Counted from the first letter of the stretch, positions 2,154 through 9,649 are shown. The stretch is 64,000 bases of DNA from Candidatus Latescibacterota bacterium (GCA_965203805.1 OZ241917.1:288001-352000); one strand, 5' to 3'. Notes: generated from the letters alone by a model not told the origin. Numbers and translations: made by a program.

Positions 2154-4301
2154 CTAATCGTCGTTATCGGAAGCTTCCCGAGATTCGGCGGTCCCTTCCT
2201 CCGCGGCGGGTGCGTCCGAATCCTCCGCGTCGGCAGTTGCGTCCTGTTTGGGCCGTCCGTTGTGAGATTCCGACGGTTCAGGCGGCTTTTGCAACTTCTC
2301 TCCAGCGAGAATGCGGTCGAGCTGGGAGTCGTCGAGCACTTCGAACTCCAGCAGCGCGTCGGCCAGCACGTGGACCTGGGCGATATTCTCCCGCAGCAGG
2401 GATTCCGCCCGTTCCTCCGCGGTCAGGACGAAGCTGCGGATTTCGTCGTCGATGACTTGCGCGACTTTTTCGCTGAAATCCCGGCGCTGGGCCATTTCCC
2501 GGCCCAGGAAGACCTCGTCCTGTCTGTTGCCGTAGGAAATAGGACCGAGCTTGTCGCTCATGCCCCAGTCGCAGACCATCCTGCGGGCCAGGTCCGTGGC
2601 CATCTTGTAGTCCTGCTGCCCGCCGCTGGATACTTCTCCAAACACGATTTTCTCCGCTACCCGCCCACCCAACGCGTAGGTGAGAACAGCGTCGCTGTAG
2701 CTCCTGGAATAGTTGTGGCGTTCGTCGATCGGCAGATACGTGGTCAGGCCGAGGGATTGGCCGCGGGGAATAATCGTGACTTTATGCACCGGATCGGACT
2801 CGGGAACGAGCTTGGCCACCAGCGCGTGACCGATCTCGTGATATGCCGTGCGCTTCTTTTCCGAGTCGGAGATGACCAGGCTGCGCCTTTCCACGCCCAT
2901 AATGACCTTGTCTTTCGCATTCTCGAAGTCTTCCATAACCACGGAGGTCCGGTCGTACCTGGAGGCGAGCAGGGCCGCCTCGTTCACCAGATTCTCCAGG
3001 TCGGCCTGCGTGAAGCCGGGCGTGGCGCGGGCAAGCACGGCCAGGTCCACGTCCTTGTCCAGGGGCGTATTCCGGATGTGGACCTTCAGCACGCCTTCCC
3101 TGCCCTTGACGTCGGGCCGGTCCACAACGACCTGCCGGTCGAAACGGCCCGGTCGCAGAAGCGCCGGATCGAGTACGTCCGGCCGGTTGGTCGCCGCAAT
3201 GAGAATGACGCCTTCCTTGGAGTCGAATCCGTCCATCTCAACCAGCAACTGGTTGAGCGTCTGCTCCCGCTCGTCGTGGCCTCCGCCGATGCCGGCGCCG
3301 CGGTGCCGCCCGACTGCGTCGATTTCGTCGATGAAAATGATGCACGGCGCATTGGCCTTGCCCTGTTCGAACAGGTCTCGTACGCGGGAGGCGCCGACAC
3401 CCACGAACATCTCGACGAAGTCGGAGCCGCTCATACTGTAAAACGGCACCCCGGCCTCGCCGGCCACGGCTTTCGCCATGTACGTCTTGCCGGTACCCGG
3501 CGGCCCGACGAGGAGGACGCCCTTGGGGATCCTGCCGCCGAGCCTCTGGAATTTCCGGGGATCCTTGAGATACTCGATGATTTCCTGGAGTTCCTGTTTG
3601 GCCTCGTCGGATCCGGCAACGTCTTTAAACGTGACTTTCGGGCGGTCTTCCGAAACCAGCTTCGCCCTGCTCTTGCCGAAGCTGAACGCGCCTTTCGGAC
3701 CTCCCTGCATCTGCCGGAAGATGAACAGCCAGAGGCCGACGAAGAGCAGCCACGGCAGGAAGTTGAAGAACACCTTCAACCAGTCGAAGGGTTTATCCTG
3801 GAACCGAAAGTCGATCTCGTACTTTTCCCAGTCGGCTATTGCCTCTTCGCCGATGACGCCCAGGTTGACCACAAAGGTGCGGTATGCCTGTTGCGAGCCC
3901 CGGCTGGTTGCATATTCGGGTTCGCGCAGCGTACCATAGAAATCACTGTCGATGATGACGGCGCTTTCAATCTTGCCCTGTTTCATCAGCGTTCTGTATT
4001 CCTTATAGCTCAGGACCACCTCGCCCGAGCCGGTACTGCTTCCGAAGAACCGGGTCGCGAACAGGGCGACCAGGACAAAAAAGACCCAGAACGCAAGCGT
4101 CTTTGAGCGTCGACGCCACTCGCTGCCGTTGTTCTCGGGACCGGACCCGGGCTCCCGGTTGTGGCGCGGCCGCGGCCGGTTCCGCGGCGTCTCGGGCGCG
4201 TCCCGGTCCCCGTCGGATTCAGGTTTCAGTTCCGGCGCAGGCGGCTTCATTTCCTTCGGTTCCGCGGCCGGAGTCTCTTCCTGGTCTTTGCGATCTGCCA
4301 T
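2154..4301 (-). CDS. ftsH: ATP-dependent zinc metalloprotease FtsH
   Basis: Two TM segments, Walker [29 protein letters not shown] zinc motif. Start chosen at MADRKDQ. Confidence 0.97.
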
Positions 4302-4324: not shown

Positions 4325-5749
4325 TTAAGAGGAAGCGATTACGTGTCCCCAACCACCCCTGAAGGTGACGTCCAGCACAGTTTCTGCCCGATGGGTGACG
4401 GCCGTTGGACGGGCCGTACGCAAGCCGACCACCCAAAGGATGGCCTTCCCGTCCATAAGCAGCGGGATTTCGTCACGCAACGGCCTGGGAATCTTGAGGT
4501 TGATAAACAGGTCGCTGATTTTTTTCGTTCCATTCAGGCCGAACGGCGCGAAACGGTCCGCCCGGCGCCGGTTTCTCAGTGTCAGGCCGCCGGCAAGCGT
4601 ATCCCGGTCGAAACAGGCGCGAAACGGATCGCTCGTCAGATCATGCGCTCGCACCTGGCTGGCTGGACGGATCCTCGTCTCCAGGACGGCGCCGATTTCC
4701 GGAATTTCGGTGACGCCCGGAACCGCCACTTCGGTCTCGAACGCCGGCGTTGGCCGACTCACGATCAGCCATGGGCCGGCACGATGAACGGAGATACCGG
4801 AAGCTGCCTGAACCGCGCCGGCAGGTGCATGACGCAGGGAATCCATGCGCCTGACACTCTGCTCGTCCAGGTCTCGCGCACAGCCTCGAAGTCGAAAAAA
4901 GGCCGTTCTGAAAATCCTGCGTCGAAGTGCTATATGATAACCGAAAACGGCGTTTTCATCAAGAATTATTTTTCGCTTGCCCTCGTAGCGAAGAGCCTTT
5001 CGGTAGGCCGATTCCGCCTGCAGATCGAGCAGTTGATCTTCCCCCTGGATGATCTCCGCGGACCTTGCCAGGGCCGCCTCGATGTCGGGGTTGTATTCCG
5101 ACGCGAGCTTCGGCAGGAGACGATGCCGGATCCGGTTCCTGAGAAAGCGGTCATCCGCGTTGGAATCGTCGCGGCGCACGCGCAGGCTCCGGTGGTCCAC
5201 ATAGGCCTCGATCTGTTGGCGCGAAACCGTCAGGAGGGGGCGGATCCAGATGCCGTCGCGGATCGGTCTGATCGCGCCCAACCCGGTCGGACCGGCGCCG
5301 CTGAACAGGCGCATCAGTACAGTTTCGGCCTGATCGCTGCGTGTATGGCCCAATGCGATCCGCGCGGCGCCCGCGGTCCGCATTACGCGTTCTAGAAACG
5401 CGAGGCGCGCTTCGCGGGCAGCCGCTTCCGGAGAGCCCCTCATCACCACGGTGGCGCGCTCCGAATAGAACGGGAGACCCATCGAGGCGGCGAGGTCTCT
5501 TACGAATCGCTCGTCCATATCGGATGCCGCGCCCCTGAGTTGATGGTTGAGGTGGGCCACGCAGAGCCGGATATCGAGAGATTCGCGAAGCCTGAACAGC
5601 AGATCCAGAAGCGATACGGAGTCCGGCCCGCCCGATACGCCGATCACAATCCTGTCCCCGCCCCGGATCATCTCGTGCCGGTCAATGTGGGAATGCACGG
5701 ACTGGAGCAGGTCGGGAGGATCGGAGTCGGGTTTTTTTTTCGGATCCAT
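4325..5749 (-). CDS. tilS: tRNA(Ile)-lysidine synthetase
   Basis: PP-loop [28 protein letters not shown] and TilS C-terminal domain; tilS-ftsH-folP synteny. Confidence 0.95.
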
Positions 5750-6003
5750 GGTGGCATTGCGCGAAAGTGCAGGCACAGACGGCAAAGGGTGCCTTGCCGG
5801 GTGTCCGACGTGACCCCGTGCGGCGAGTGAAGTCAGATCCGGAAGCATGCGGATTGTCTGCATTTCAACTGTTAGACGCCGCAGAAATCGGTTCGGTTTC
5901 TGAAAAACCGGCGCCGGTCGGTCTATCTGTAACGAACTATAGACTTTTGCGCGCTGCAGCCGGGCCCGACATAATGGATGTTCCATGATATCGGGGAAAG
6001 AAA

Positions 6004-6037
6004 AGAAAAAACACGCTGATTTCAGCGTGTTTTTTCT
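6004..6037. terminator. Intrinsic terminator after the redoxin operon (possibly bidirectional)
   Basis: AGAAAAAACACGCTGA-TT-TCAGCGTGTTTTTTCT inverted repeat with A/T tracts on both sides, 20 nt downstream of the 6058 stop. Confidence 0.8.
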
Positions 6038-6057
6038 ACGTAATGACTACCTTCAAT

Positions 6058-7038
6058 TCAGGGCACGCGTTTGCCGAAGTTTTTCGCGAATTCCAGAAAG
6101 TCGCGAAAGTCGACCAGCCCGCTTCCGTCAAGGTCGAAGGTGGCGTTGTCGGTGTTGAAGGCCTGTGCGAATGCGATGAAGTCGCTGAATCCGATTTCGC
6201 CGTCATTGTCGAAGTCGGCCCGGGGATTGACGGGGACGATGACGGCCGTTCCGGAGAACGAGACGGTAATGCTGCGGTTTTCAGGGTCGTTGCTCAGAAT
6301 TGTGAGGGTGCCGGAGAATGGACCGCCCTCCGAGGGTGTAAAGGTGATATCGACGGTCCCGCTGTCGCCGGGCGCGACCATGAGTCTCGTGCGGCTGAAC
6401 GTGACGCCCTCGAGGTCGGACTCCATGTTCGAAATCCTGAGGGGCTCCCCTCCGGTATTCTTCACGACGAGGGTAAGGGTCCTGGCTTCTCCGGCGGGAA
6501 CGTCCTCGCCTAAGTCGAGAGATGTATTGGCGAGGCTGATTGCCGGCGGCGCGACGGCCAGCAATCCCCGGATACTCGTCGCCGCGGCGCTGAGACCGGA
6601 AGCGCCGCGGCCGATGTGCCGGACGATCCCTTCACGGTCCGCGACCAGCATCGTGTGGGTCCCGTGAGATCCCCTGACACTGCCTGCCTTAAGCAGGAGG
6701 GGAAACGTGATCGAAGTCGTTGATTGAAATCCTTGAAGTTGGGACTGACTGCCATTGTAGATGTCGAGCCCCAGGACCGCAACGCCGTCATCCTGGAACG
6801 CCTTCCAGATCTGCTGTTCAATGGACGGACCCGCCGCCCTGCAGGTGGGTCAGTTGTGGCCCAGGTAATAGAGAACCAGAATGCTGCCCTTGTAATTCGC
6901 GGTGGCGTAGGTTTTCCCGTCCAGCCCCGTCAGCGAGAAGGTGGGCGCCGCGTCTCCGACACTCTGGGCTTCGGCGGGTTCCGGCGGGTTGAGTCCGAAG
7001 AGCAGAAGAAACACAAGGCACGTCGCGATTCGACTCAT
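6058..7038 (-). CDS. Predicted exported selenoprotein (326 aa): signal peptide, thioredoxin-fold redoxin with UxxC (Sec63), Ig-like domain, dockerin/EF-hand-like tail
   Basis: ORFs 6850-7038 and 6058-6651 share a frame. The only stop between them is TGA 6852-6850, in ...VLYYLGHN-U-PTC-RAAGPSIEQQIWKAFQDDGVAVLGLDIYNG... RBS AAGGAGG; SECIS-like hairpin immediately 3'; C-terminal DFDNDGEIGFSDF / DLDGSGLVDFRDF repeats. Confidence 0.85.
6823..6839 (-). promoter_or_regulatory. Candidate bacterial SECIS element
   Basis: mRNA reads UGA-CCCACCUGCA-GGGCGG-CGGGU-CCGUCC: a 6-bp stem with one G-U pair, a 5-nt loop 16 nt after UGA, and G at loop position 2. Confidence 0.7.
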
Positions 7039-7071
7039 CGAAGGCCTCCTTTAAGAAAGTGAAGGTTTGTG

Positions 7072-8655
7072 TCAGAAATAGGTCTTAAAACGCATTTCAA
7101 GTCCATTGAACGGCAATACCTGATAGCATGTCCCCGATGTACACGCGGCGCCGCCCCGCCTCCGGCCGGCGAAGACGAGGGCTTCGTATCTGTCGAGGAA
7201 GGCGGCGTTGAGATTGACCGCCACCCAGGTCCGCGACCCGGTTTCGATCCGGTCCGTCGTGGCGCTATCATCCACTTCGAACGGGTCGTTGGTGCGATCC
7301 AGAACGAGAGCGGCCCCCACGCCCGAGGGATGCTGGAATGAAAACTGGGCATACACGTCACGGAACGTCGGCTCGTTTCGGGGAAGCCTTGCCGCGCGTC
7401 GGACCTGCAGATCGAAGCCCGTGACAGCCCCGCCGGGTGCGATGGACTCGATTCCCGCGCCGGCAATCCTGTGCATTCGGATGCCCTTCAATTCGTCTTT
7501 GCCCCAATCCACGAACAGGCTGGTCGAAATCGCGCGGCCGTGGTCTTCCGGGTGGTGGTCGATGTCCAGGCCGACGTACCGTTCATTGAAAGTCGTCGCG
7601 AATCCGGGCGCCAGTTCGTTCTTCCCCTTACTGATGTTTGCCGTCAGCGTCCCCAGCCCGAAAATCGAATACGTGGCCTCCGCCTGATAGCCCGTTTCCG
7701 TATCGGCAATCAGGGCATGGGTGGCCCGGTTGAGCAGGACGGCCGAGTGTTCGCGGACCAGGGAAGGGGGATCGTTGAAACTGAAGGCGAAATTCTCATA
7801 GTCCTTGTATTCCAGGCTGAGACCCAGGTTGGAAATCCCGGCGTTTGCCGAAAGATACAGAGCGCTGCCGTCCACGTGCACGTCGTTCAGCCCTGCGTAT
7901 TCCGCGTATACGGTCGCGTACAGGTCAGAGAATCCGGATGCTTCAAATGCCGGCGTGACGTCCAGCTCCAGGAAACCCGACCACGATCGGGTCGAATCAA
8001 GCCCGGAGGCGTGGTGACTGACGGCCGTAACACCGGCCTTAATTTGGCTGGCAGGCTGAAGCGAGACCTCGCCTCCGACCAGCCAGCTATCGCGCCGCGG
8101 CAGGTCCTGGAGCGGGTTGCCCACTCGAACCGCGGGCGGAATGTCACTTAATACGGGTCGCCCGATCAGGGCTTTGGCCCCGGCCCGCGGCCCCGTCCAG
8201 GTGGCCATGCCTCCCTCGAGGTCTCGCGAAGGCGAATAGCGTCGCCGGTATTGCCCGCTCTCCAGAATTACGCCCGGCAGATCGAATGCCCTGAGCGTGA
8301 TACCCCGACCCAGGATGGCATAGTAGTTGCCCGCAACCAGTTCGGCGGGTCCATGGGTCCACCGCAGTTGTTTCTGGGCCAGATGCACAACCTGGTATTC
8401 GACCTGTGAAAGCGGCGAGTCGCGACCGGTGTTGCGCCATGCGTTGAAAATCTCGGCCTGCAGGCCCGCCTGAAATTCACCCCGGGTGTAACTGATATCG
8501 AACTGTTCGTAAAGGTTCGAAATTGCAAGCGAATCCGAGCCCGGTACGCGTCCCCGCTGGACTTCGGTCAGGCTGGATGCAGTCACCTGCGCGACCGCGG
8601 GCTGCGCCGTCGACAGCAGTATTGGCACGATCAGGTTATTGATCAGCGCTCGCAT
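7072..8655 (-). CDS. Outer-membrane beta-barrel protein, DUF6029-like, with C-terminal CxxGxC motif
   Basis: Signal peptide, alternating amphipathic beta strands, GNYYAILGRGITLR, EYKDY, GGAACTSGTCYQVLPFNG and a terminal Phe. Family name is by recognition, not by search. Confidence 0.7.
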   Translation of the reverse strand: MRALINNLIVPILLSTAQPAVAQVTASSLTEVQRGRVPGSDSLAISNLYEQFDISYTRGEFQAGLQAEIFNAWRNTGRDSPLSQVEYQVVHLAQKQLRWTHGPAELVAGNYYAILGRGITLRAFDLPGVILESGQYRRRYSPSRDLEGGMATWTGPRAGAKALIGRPVLSDIPPAVRVGNPLQDLPRRDSWLVGGEVSLQPASQIKAGVTAVSHHASGLDSTRSWSGFLELDVTPAFEASGFSDLYATVYAEYAGLNDVHVDGSALYLSANAGISNLGLSLEYKDYENFAFSFNDPPSLVREHSAVLLNRATHALIADTETGYQAEATYSIFGLGTLTANISKGKNELAPGFATTFNERYVGLDIDHHPEDHGRAISTSLFVDWGKDELKGIRMHRIAGAGIESIAPGGAVTGFDLQVRRAARLPRNEPTFRDVYAQFSFQHPSGVGAALVLDRTNDPFEVDDSATTDRIETGSRTWVAVNLNAAFLDRYEALVFAGRRRGGAACTSGTCYQVLPFNGLEMRFKTYF

Positions 8656-9175
8656 CGGAGTCTGCCTCGTCGTCGGTGCCGGAGTCGGGGAAAAGCGCTT
8701 CGACTGCAGCCAGCAACACATCGGCGTTTTTCGAATTGTATCCGACCTGCCGCAGCGCAATTTCACCATCCGGCGTGATCAGCAGCGTCGTGGGAAGGAC
8801 GTTCACCTGCATTCGCCGCATCACCGCGCTGTCGGAGTCGAGGGCGATGGGGAAGCTGACCTTTCGCGCCCTGAGGAACGGTTTCACCCTGTTCTGTCCG
8901 CGCGGACCGTCCACGTTGACGCCAAGAACCGTGAGCCCGGATTTTCCATATTTCTCGTGGATCTTCTGGAGCTTGGGCATTGCCTTGATGCAAGGCTTGC
9001 AGTAGGTCGCCCAGAAGTCCAGGAGCACGGGACCCTTTGCCAGCAGGGTCTTGAGGTTGACCCGTTCGCCCCGCAGGTTCCGGAGATTGAAATCGGGGGC
9101 GGGGGCGGCGTTCACGGATGCGGAAATCAGCGTGATTGAGGCGGCAAGAGCCAACGATTGAACGGTCGATTTCAT
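8636..9175 (-). CDS. TlpA/ResA-family thiol-disulfide oxidoreductase, exported
   Basis: Signal peptide, APDFNL, LDFWATYCKPC, LPTTLLI. Confidence 0.9.
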   Translation of the reverse strand: MKSTVQSLALAASITLISASVNAAPAPDFNLRNLRGERVNLKTLLAKGPVLLDFWATYCKPCIKAMPKLQKIHEKYGKSGLTVLGVNVDGPRGQNRVKPFLRARKVSFPIALDSDSAVMRRMQVNVLPTTLLITPDGEIALRQVGYNSKNADVLLAAVEALFPDSGTDDEADSDASADQ

Positions 9176-9649
9176 CGGTCGAATCTTCCCCTCGCAAGAT
9201 AGCGGTGGTACGAGGATGTTGCCGTTACTCTGAAGGACCCCCCGCGCGTCTGCCCGGTTCCGGAATCCACGCTGCCGCGCACAATGCACGGTGGTCCGGA
9301 TCAACGTCGAATTGCCTAACAATAACCGAAAGATCGCGGCGCATCAAGCGCTATTTTGCTTTGTTTCATAAGTACCTTTCAGGCGGCATAGCAGTCTGGC
9401 GCCTGAAAACCCGGCGGGAGTAACGACGATCTCGATTCCAACGATCCGTTTCCGCTTGCCGCGCTTTTCCGTTCGATCTATATTGTACGAATCGACCGCA
9501 ACCGCGGGCGCCCGCGGTTGCGGAAACAACAATGCTCTGAAGTCGTCAGGATCGTGTAACGCGTTCGATTGCGGGGCGTCTCTAGCGTAACCGGACACCG
9601 GGCCGTCCGTTTTGCGGACGGTCGTTGAATTTCAGGGGAAGGGCTCGCC

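Follow-up and report, generated by a model that had tools for sequence, protein, structure and literature searches.

How do the surface thiol enzymes of Gram-negative bacteria stay reduced or oxidised? The question is open, and it is raised anew by a three-gene locus of a Candidatus Latescibacterota bacterium. To our knowledge, no disulfide relay reaches beyond the periplasm, and we know of no redox-active outer-membrane protein except the porin-cytochrome complexes. The stretch of DNA analysed here (the window: 64,000 nucleotides, GCA_965203805.1 OZ241917.1:288001-352000) carries on its minus strand a gene for a TlpA/ResA-like thiol:disulfide oxidoreductase, a gene for a DUF6029-like outer-membrane β-barrel and a gene for a protein with a UxxC motif, in which U stands for selenocysteine (Sec). 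An initial annotation, made from the sequence of the window, had proposed that the three products form a relay, in which electrons pass from periplasmic TlpA to a cysteine loop of the barrel and on to a surface Sec redoxin. Is the selenoprotein real? Do the three genes belong together? Could the redoxin and the barrel meet, and could the third protein be on the surface? The answers point, tentatively and with a likelihood that we place just short of even, to a thiol/selenol relay of plug-in-barrel type that would reach the cell surface.

The third gene of the locus (gene 3; 6058..7038, minus strand) encodes 326 aa if an in-frame TGA is read as Sec, and its own stop codon is also TGA. We hold with high confidence that the internal TGA at 6852..6850 (6850..6852, minus strand), residue 63 in the sequence GHN-U-PTC, is a genuine Sec codon. 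In the source genome (5.87 Mb, one contig) the gene for tRNA-Sec adjoins selB and selA, and the whole Sec machinery scores over the cut-offs (tRNA-Sec 73.4 bits for a cut-off of 47; selB 370.7, selA 559.2 and selD 358.7 bits). The codon is kept, with the protein conserved on both sides of it, in 16 of 16 gene copies from 12 close relatives (four of these copies being tandem second copies), in all nine more distant copies from the phylum and, in a further lineage, in 13 metagenome loci. This gives 32 distinct TGA contexts over three lineages, and most matches to gene 3 across the phylum carry exactly one TGA. What stands at this position when it is not Sec? One homologue (P0176) has GHNCPVC, with cysteine at the Sec position. 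The 97 distinct active sites found for the third gene are all C/UxxC, 60 of them Cys forms and 37 Sec forms, so the Sec form is not confined to the window; across the family its motif is G-[HWYF]-x-U-x-x-C. The selD gene of the source genome (C1:2775468-2776391, outside the window) itself holds one in-frame TGA, and SelD is therefore probably a selenoprotein in this organism as well.

The RNA downstream of the codon may carry a signal as well, at the level of the family. All 32 Sec forms can form a hairpin about 13-32 nt past the UGA, with stems that are specific to each lineage and constant in position (GGACG/CGUCC, GGCUG/CAGCC, UCGCGG/CCGCGA and CUCUCG/CGAGAG). The Sec forms have a median z-score of -1.22 and 62 Cys forms, folded at the same position, one of +0.33 (Mann-Whitney p 4.6e-8, a value that is not a true probability because the sequences are related). 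In the window, the putative selenocysteine insertion sequence (SECIS) is a hairpin at 6823..6839 (minus strand), 14-30 nt after the U of UGA, with the stem GGGCGG/CCGUCC and a loop around GGUC. Folding the 71 nt after this TGA gave a structure no better than shuffled sequences (z 0.07), so the fold of the single sequence is not informative. A scan of 5800-9500 with Rfam returned no SECIS or other family, only small-RNA matches of chance level at the terminator. Public annotation has cut the gene short: the gene call at 6058-6651 of the window is a 197-aa C-terminal piece only (P0158, 100% identical), and the public relatives of gene 3 are likewise C-terminal fragments of 197-241 aa, named 'choice-of-anchor D domain-containing protein'.

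Do the three genes form a unit? The initial annotation had described them as co-oriented and tightly coupled, with a 20-nt overlap, a 33-nt gap and one terminator. Position and strand agree with this, as do the gap between the barrel gene and gene 3 on recounting and a terminator-like hairpin behind gene 3; the overlap of the tlpA-like and barrel genes counts 17 nt, not 20. The arrangement recurs elsewhere, as the annotation had left to be surveyed. Among close relatives (labelled Candidatus Latescibacterota, except three labelled Gemmatimonadota and one simply 'bacterium') tlpA adjoins the barrel gene in 13 of 13 loci, and the order tlpA-barrel-Sec gene is found in 12 of them. Across the phylum the barrel is present in 102 of 168 genomes, and tlpA adjoins it in each of the 30 best loci, taken from 30 genomes. 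The third gene is adjacent in nine of these 30 loci (three of family f1 and six of family f4, in which transcription of the barrel gene diverges from that of tlpA and the Sec gene), with a TGA in all nine. Counted by genome, barrel and redoxin occur together in 96, the barrel only in 6, the redoxin only in 9 and neither in 57, the related genomes not being independent of one another. A metagenome scan with a 14-row alignment of Rhodothermales/Balneolales-like barrels added 80 loci. Here tlpA (WATWC[KQ]PC) lies directly upstream of the barrel, often overlapping its start, in all 62 loci with at least 480 nt of upstream flank, six of which were counted only after over-long calls of the barrel open reading frame (ORF) had been corrected. 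A second redoxin is adjacent in all 68 loci with at least 450 nt of downstream flank (60 downstream, 8 upstream), and the full trio is present in all 55 loci that have both flanks. The arrangement is not chance: the order is the same in 12 of 13 close relatives and the module is found in distant lineages. Taken at the level of sequence, the three genes are shown to be one coupled unit conserved across distant lineages, in which every member keeps one redox pair, as the initial annotation had noticed for the window: CxxC in TlpA, CxxGxC in the barrel and UxxC or CxxC in the third protein.

What surrounds this unit? Genes beyond the trio vary between loci, and the module is thus self-contained. 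A Pfam scan of 76 flanking proteins, drawn from 18 of the 25 long-flank loci, showed no further conserved partner, no CcdA/DsbD and no polysaccharide-export gene of the outer-membrane polysaccharide export (OPX) type; the same 76 proteins included no cytochrome c or copper-centre maturation genes, and the only match to envelope glycan synthesis was one lipid A gene (LpxB).

The first gene (8636..9175, minus strand, 179 aa) encodes, as first annotated, an exported TlpA-like protein with the motif WATYCKPC (C59 and C62): its sequence reads as a cleavable signal peptide ending in VNA/A, followed by a domain that exceeds the cut-offs of the Pfam families AhpC-TSA (86.8 bits) and Redoxin (71.6 bits). 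Profile matches in the PDB are to ResA (106 bits) and TlpA (62 bits). Against NCBIfam it stays below every curated cut-off (ResA 103.7 for 170, TlpA 51.7 for 230, DsbE 42.9 for 123), and by these scores the protein is related to the named ResA, TlpA and DsbE groups but is not a member of them. C59, P61 and C62 are invariant in 71 of 71 orthologues.

The second gene (7072..8652, minus strand, 526 aa) encodes the barrel. Its match to DUF6029 (PF19494) is above the cut-off (54.1 bits for 27) and consists of two short stretches, the best covering residues 51-123 only; with the same model, a six-frame search of the genome reached 27.9 bits, limited to model positions 60-126. NCBIfam models had no match to the protein, and a relative at 33% identity carries the NCBI name 'DUF6029 family protein'. 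The C-terminus (...RFKTYF) is a typical outer-membrane-protein ending. The only cysteines are C504 and C509, in the hairpin sequence C504-T-S-G-T-C509 (codons at 7126..7143, minus strand), in agreement with the CTSGTC pair first noted near the C-terminus. Is this pair conserved? A search of 1.84 billion representative sequences found 417 relatives, and C504, G507 and C509 are invariant in the 92 full-length ones, down to 22% identity, within the motif RRGGxxCxxGxCyxV. Among the matches listed whose C-terminal motif is present, one relative (P0127) is without the cysteines. The AlphaFold2 model of the barrel has a predicted local distance difference test (pLDDT) score of 94.3, a predicted TM score of 0.89 and about 24 strands; in it the Cys hairpin (strands 501-505 and 508-512) is flanked by strand 489-498 and the final one, 515-525. 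A search of the PDB by sequence returned no relative of the barrel at E<=1. By fold, the closest matches to the model are the ushers FimD and PapC, with Z 19.2 (359 residues, root-mean-square deviation 4.5) and Z 18.5 (371 residues), and below them rank OprD-type and TonB-dependent barrels, AlgE, MtrB (Z 13.7, 365 residues) and Wzi (Z 13.2). In the parts of the literature accessible to us, DUF6029 has been likened by HHpred to Wzi-type barrels encoded near polysaccharide export genes, an export role being only suggested (PMC9603273), and the accessible portions of two papers on PorA make no mention of neighbouring redox genes (PMC7712824, PMC12152298).

Could TlpA and the barrel meet? Barrel residues 22-526 were folded together with TlpA residues 24-165, each with its own alignment. 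The interface score ipSAE, which expresses the confidence of the model and is not proof of binding, was 0.88, 0.86 and 0.88 for the pair and 0.00 for all three controls. In the calibration of the tool, that mark is reached by 116 of the 157 solved complexes and by 2 of the 215 mismatched pairs, counts that hold only roughly here since the alignments were our own. Agreement between the runs covers at least 93% of the contacts, with a pLDDT of at least 86 for the partner and 166-183 contacts. On the side of the barrel these contacts involve both termini, all 11 periplasmic turns, the wall strands, the loops 110-127 and 294-303 and the hairpin tip at 506-507; on the side of TlpA they involve most of the surface, including residues 56-60 (A-T-Y-C59-K). 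TlpA is thus predicted to enter the lumen at the periplasmic end and to lodge there, with inward-folded loops and the tip of the Cys hairpin resting on it. As the barrel has no solved relative by sequence, recall of a known complex by the predictor is unlikely.

Is the third protein on the surface? The gene 3 product of the window reads, in order, as a signal peptide (recognised from the sequence), a ResA/AhpC-like thioredoxin fold, an Ig-like choice-of-anchor D/DUF1573 domain (6247..6558, minus strand; residues ~161-264) and a dockerin-like double F-hand tail (6061..6231, minus strand; residues ~270-326). Pfam recognises AhpC-TSA (52.4 bits) and the Ig-like DUF1573/ASH domain (PF07610, 48.7 bits), with Redoxin also over its cut-off, and NCBIfam recognises choice-of-anchor D (NF012200, 51 bits for 45). 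At E<=0.001 gene 3 matches 17 PDB sequences, and both redoxins of the locus match ResA, StoA and TlpA. The exported UxxC selenoprotein with a dockerin-like tail, as it was first described, is found with these domains; the tail stays below threshold for dockerin (Pfam Dockerin_1 14 bits for 22.9, NCBIfam GC-type dockerin 24.1 for 29) and is over it for EF-hand_1 (26.8 bits for 25.4). The genome has 58 matches to the same tail, gene 3 included (for example C1:1937404-1937574 and a cluster at C1:3944023-3948936). The genome holds only two cohesin-domain frames over the cut-off (C1:3329699-3330061 and C1:3837822-3838127), and both also carry type IX secretion system (T9SS) sorting domains. T9SS itself is present, with SprA at 488 bits and 13 sorting-domain matches. 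The simplest reading would be that a T9SS-anchored cohesin scaffold holds dockerin-tailed proteins, the gene 3 redoxin among them, on the surface.

Elsewhere the third protein is typically ~260 aa long; behind its signal peptide stand a thioredoxin fold (FFGxxCPxC) and a T9SS type A sorting domain. Four relatives score 55.8, 46.8, 35.8 and 35.4 bits for TIGR04183 (cut-off 23), and a fifth, cut by the end of its locus, scores 23.0. The surface location supposed in the initial annotation is thus the predicted one in most lineages, from this sorting domain. Codon and domains together show the third product, as far as sequence can, to be a genuine selenoprotein with surface-sorting or anchoring domains. 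The third gene also varies in number and shape. Some loci add a shorter redoxin copy of ~175 aa whose N-terminus resembles, by eye, a lipoprotein signal. In three metagenome loci (L079, L119 and L123) two thioredoxin folds are fused in the second redoxin, which has ~330 aa and two CxxC motifs and lies upstream of tlpA and not downstream of the barrel. Four close relatives (L025, L027, L031 and L034, at ~8620-9630) have a tandem second copy of the Sec gene immediately behind the first, 64-66% identical, with U-DLC or U-NLC; the window has one copy. Unlinked Sec paralogues in genomes of a further family, f2 (L146-L151), join the UxxC fold to between two and at least five Ig-like choice-of-anchor D domains and the same tail, and some of these frames exceed 680 aa.

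How might such a set of proteins work? Reducing equivalents from a DsbD-type protein of the inner membrane would reach TlpA; a DsbD_TM gene is present in the source genome, and VKOR (PF07884) was not found in it (99.8% completeness). TlpA, predicted to plug the ~24-strand barrel from its periplasmic mouth with the active-site helix in the interface, would then hand the equivalents to the invariant Cys pair of the barrel, and thiol-disulfide exchange through this pair would carry them across the outer membrane. The surface Sec or Cys redoxin would in this way be kept active on some extracellular disulfide or oxidant, tethered by its dockerin-like tail in this genus and sorted by T9SS elsewhere. 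Outward reduction is the direction of flow that we tentatively favour. The proposal of the initial annotation has therefore fared unevenly: the co-occurrence of the trio, the invariant Cys pair and the surface sorting of the third protein in most lineages speak for a relay across the outer membrane, and the structure prediction, made for the TlpA-barrel pair, puts the hairpin tip in contact with TlpA, while the passage of electrons itself is still something that we infer. More tentative again, in our estimate, is the wider claim that this is the first thiol/selenol electron conduit across the outer membrane, running from TlpA in a 24-strand DUF6029 barrel through the Cys hairpin to a surface Sec redoxin and widespread in the Fibrobacteres-Chlorobi-Bacteroidetes (FCB) group.

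Several observations weigh against this relay. Some concern the barrel and its predicted partner. By strand parity in the model, the Cys hairpin would spring from the extracellular ends of the last two strands, and a CxxGxC staple at a hairpin tip also looks like a purely structural disulfide. Residues in the predicted contacts are not more conserved than the rest (entropy 2.43 against 2.43 in the barrel, 1.67 against 1.60 in TlpA). Co-variation between TlpA and the barrel, measured as mutual information over 99 pairs with an effective number of sequences (Neff) of ~41 and hence low power, is not enriched in the contact sets, with 1 contact among the top 25 pairs where 1.7 are expected and 17 among the top 200 where 13.9 are expected; for the interface as such, the two checks neither support nor contradict the prediction. 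If TlpA were fixed in the lumen it would also need to be re-reduced by DsbD, by a route that is unexplained. Other observations concern the third gene. A relative whose barrel is 49% identical (L035) has tlpA and the barrel in the same flanks and lacks the third gene at the locus, and in the 21 of the 30 phylum loci that belong to family f2 the nearest 1.5 kb is without the third gene; the five f2 genomes tested all hold two or three Sec homologues elsewhere, often with long Ig-like arrays and the same tail. The gene 3 protein of the window has no T9SS sorting domain (TIGR04183/PF18962) in the Pfam and NCBIfam scans, which leaves its own way across the outer membrane unaccounted for. Finally, the dipeptide in CPHC is that of the oxidase DsbA, and CPHC is found in 21 of the 97 distinct third-gene active sites, all Cys forms; with so many of them, the flow could be oxidative.

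Which other explanations have to be weighed? The one that survives best, although we consider it unlikely, is that TlpA and the barrel are an assembly pair. TlpA would be a dedicated foldase or plug, comparable to LptE for LptD, that forms or checks the hairpin disulfide, the barrel would move a solute or polysaccharide, and the third redoxin would be a co-regulated exported paralogue. The staple-like CxxGxC at the tip of a β-hairpin is what this explanation expects, the prediction has TlpA inside the lumen, f2 has the third gene unlinked, Wzi is among the fold matches at Z 13.2, and HHpred has linked DUF6029 to Wzi-like barrels near polysaccharide export genes (PMC9603273). A purely structural plug, however, need not keep its CxxC, which is invariant in 71 of 71 orthologues, and a lumen that is permanently occupied would block a channel. 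The flanking proteins, scanned in 18 of 25 long-flank loci, have no match to an OPX-type family. All 68 of the 68 metagenome loci have a surface-sorted redoxin as neighbour, and genomes with barrel and redoxin number 96 against 6 with the barrel alone.

The barrel might instead serve the third protein alone, as its export pore or its anchor at the surface, similar to an usher or a two-partner secretion pore, with TlpA keeping the active site of the cargo reduced before export. This has a low probability in our view. It would account for the usher pores FimD and PapC as best fold matches (Z 19.2 and 18.5) and for a cargo gene adjacent in most lineages, and it would offer some route out to the protein of the window, which needs one without a T9SS domain. 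But in most lineages the T9SS type A domain of the third protein implies a general export route, the Sec proteins of f2 are unlinked and several per genome, the lumen is predicted to hold TlpA and not the cargo, and the invariant Cys pair is left unexplained. Least probable of all, and very improbable, is that the two are ordinary periplasmic redoxins of cytochrome, copper-centre or peroxide chemistry with no physical tie to the barrel, the predicted complex being an artefact, for although both match ResA/TlpA/CcmG-type families, the conservation and co-variation of the interface gave no support and the complex score is a confidence and not a measurement, their adjacency with overlapping stop and start is invariant between lineages whose barrels share only ~25-35% identity, modules of T9SS, choice-of-anchor or dockerin type are present on the third protein, and the controls of the complex scored 0.00.

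The remaining features of the locus can be described briefly. A Shine-Dalgarno sequence, AAGGAGG, is read directly at 7045..7051 (minus strand) ahead of the ATG of gene 3, and the terminator-like hairpin with its T run lies at 6037..6004 on the same strand, 20 nt past the stop of gene 3, with 15 pairs and a loop of 4. Downstream on this strand follow a TilS-like ORF (4325-5986, with the PP-loop SGGPDS) and an FtsH-like ORF (2154-4100), both named by eye; in L035, which has no Sec gene, they come directly after the barrel. A divergent ORF on the plus strand (9650-10702, 350 aa), by eye an oxidoreductase of Gfo/Idh/MocA type, is the neighbour on the other side, in L035 as in the window. A viral or mobile origin of the locus was considered and dropped, as the 49%-identical relative has the same tilS-like and ftsH-like flanks. 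DNA nearly identical to 5900-9400 of the window is present in sponge, coral and marine metagenome runs from seven studies. Contigs of RNA libraries from two studies overlie parts of all three genes, which is not proof of transcription, just as stretches left uncovered carry no meaning; some bridge the junction between barrel and Sec gene, and some span the TGA site. In one metagenome lineage (L070, L088, L132 and L143) a PD40 β-propeller gene stands ahead of tlpA, and a few kb downstream come FeoB/FeoA-iron-repressor genes and one for a DsbH-like thioredoxin. These PD40 and Feo neighbours may be lineage synteny or may hint at a link to iron.

What is this module most like? In its chemistry the nearest system is the path from DsbD/CcdA to TlpA, ResA or CcmG. 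DsbD and CcdA are membrane proteins with a single essential Cys pair that pass electrons by thiol-disulfide exchange, and genes 1 and 3 encode thioredoxin folds of ResA/TlpA type with C(U)xxC. The membrane part differs, being here an outer-membrane β-barrel and not an inner-membrane helical protein, and the acceptor would be one sorted to the surface. In its architecture the module comes near two outer-membrane systems. MtrB has 26 strands, to be compared with ~24 in the barrel described here. In MtrCAB (PDB 6R2Q) a periplasmic redox protein in a large barrel meets a surface redox protein, the arrangement proposed here on the predicted complex of TlpA and barrel; MtrCAB uses hemes, whereas the present module would use thiols and selenols, and the two have no relation in sequence. 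LptD-LptE is similar in that a small protein of soluble type sits inside a very large barrel. The barrel of LptD has functionally important disulfides. The substrate that LptDE moves is lipopolysaccharide, and its LptE part is no redox protein; we found no sequence or family link between LptDE and the module.

By fold the ushers FimD and PapC are closest, at an identity of 9-10%. In these 24-strand barrels a plug domain closes the lumen, which is wide enough for folded domains. Unlike them, the module lacks genes for a chaperone or a pilin, as well as the N-terminal, C-terminal and plug domains of ushers. Curated families of Sec thioredoxin-fold proteins (WAxxUGC NF041054, TUGYCR NF053656 and SelL-related) resemble gene 3 in being exported and in having Sec for the first Cys of CxxC, and their models stay far below the cut-offs here (WAxxUGC 49.8 for 300, on gene 1; TUGYCR ~18-22 for 100, on relatives). 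The nearest surface thioredoxin that has been studied is HBP35 of Porphyromonas gingivalis, described, in the part of the report seen here, as a T9SS cargo with a thioredoxin-like motif, a C-terminal sorting domain, a place on the cell surface and thioredoxin activity in vitro (PMC2907840). It has no Sec and is not among the PDB matches of gene 3. A literature search on DUF6029, T9SS thioredoxins, selenocysteine in Latescibacteria and outer-membrane disulfide relays, judged from the listings, returned no paper describing the trio. Thiol redox chemistry across the outer membrane by such a set of proteins may thus not have been described before.

What would it mean? A conserved barrel with an invariant Cys pair and a redoxin lodged in it would give a concrete and testable machine for the question posed at the outset. 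If the relay is true, DUF6029 would gain a role and T9SS-sorted thioredoxin-like proteins a reason to exist, and the module would be the disulfide-exchange counterpart of MtrCAB and the outer-membrane counterpart of DsbD. And because the Sec gene is mis-called in public records, a putative surface selenoprotein family of Latescibacterota and other lineages has been hidden from annotation.

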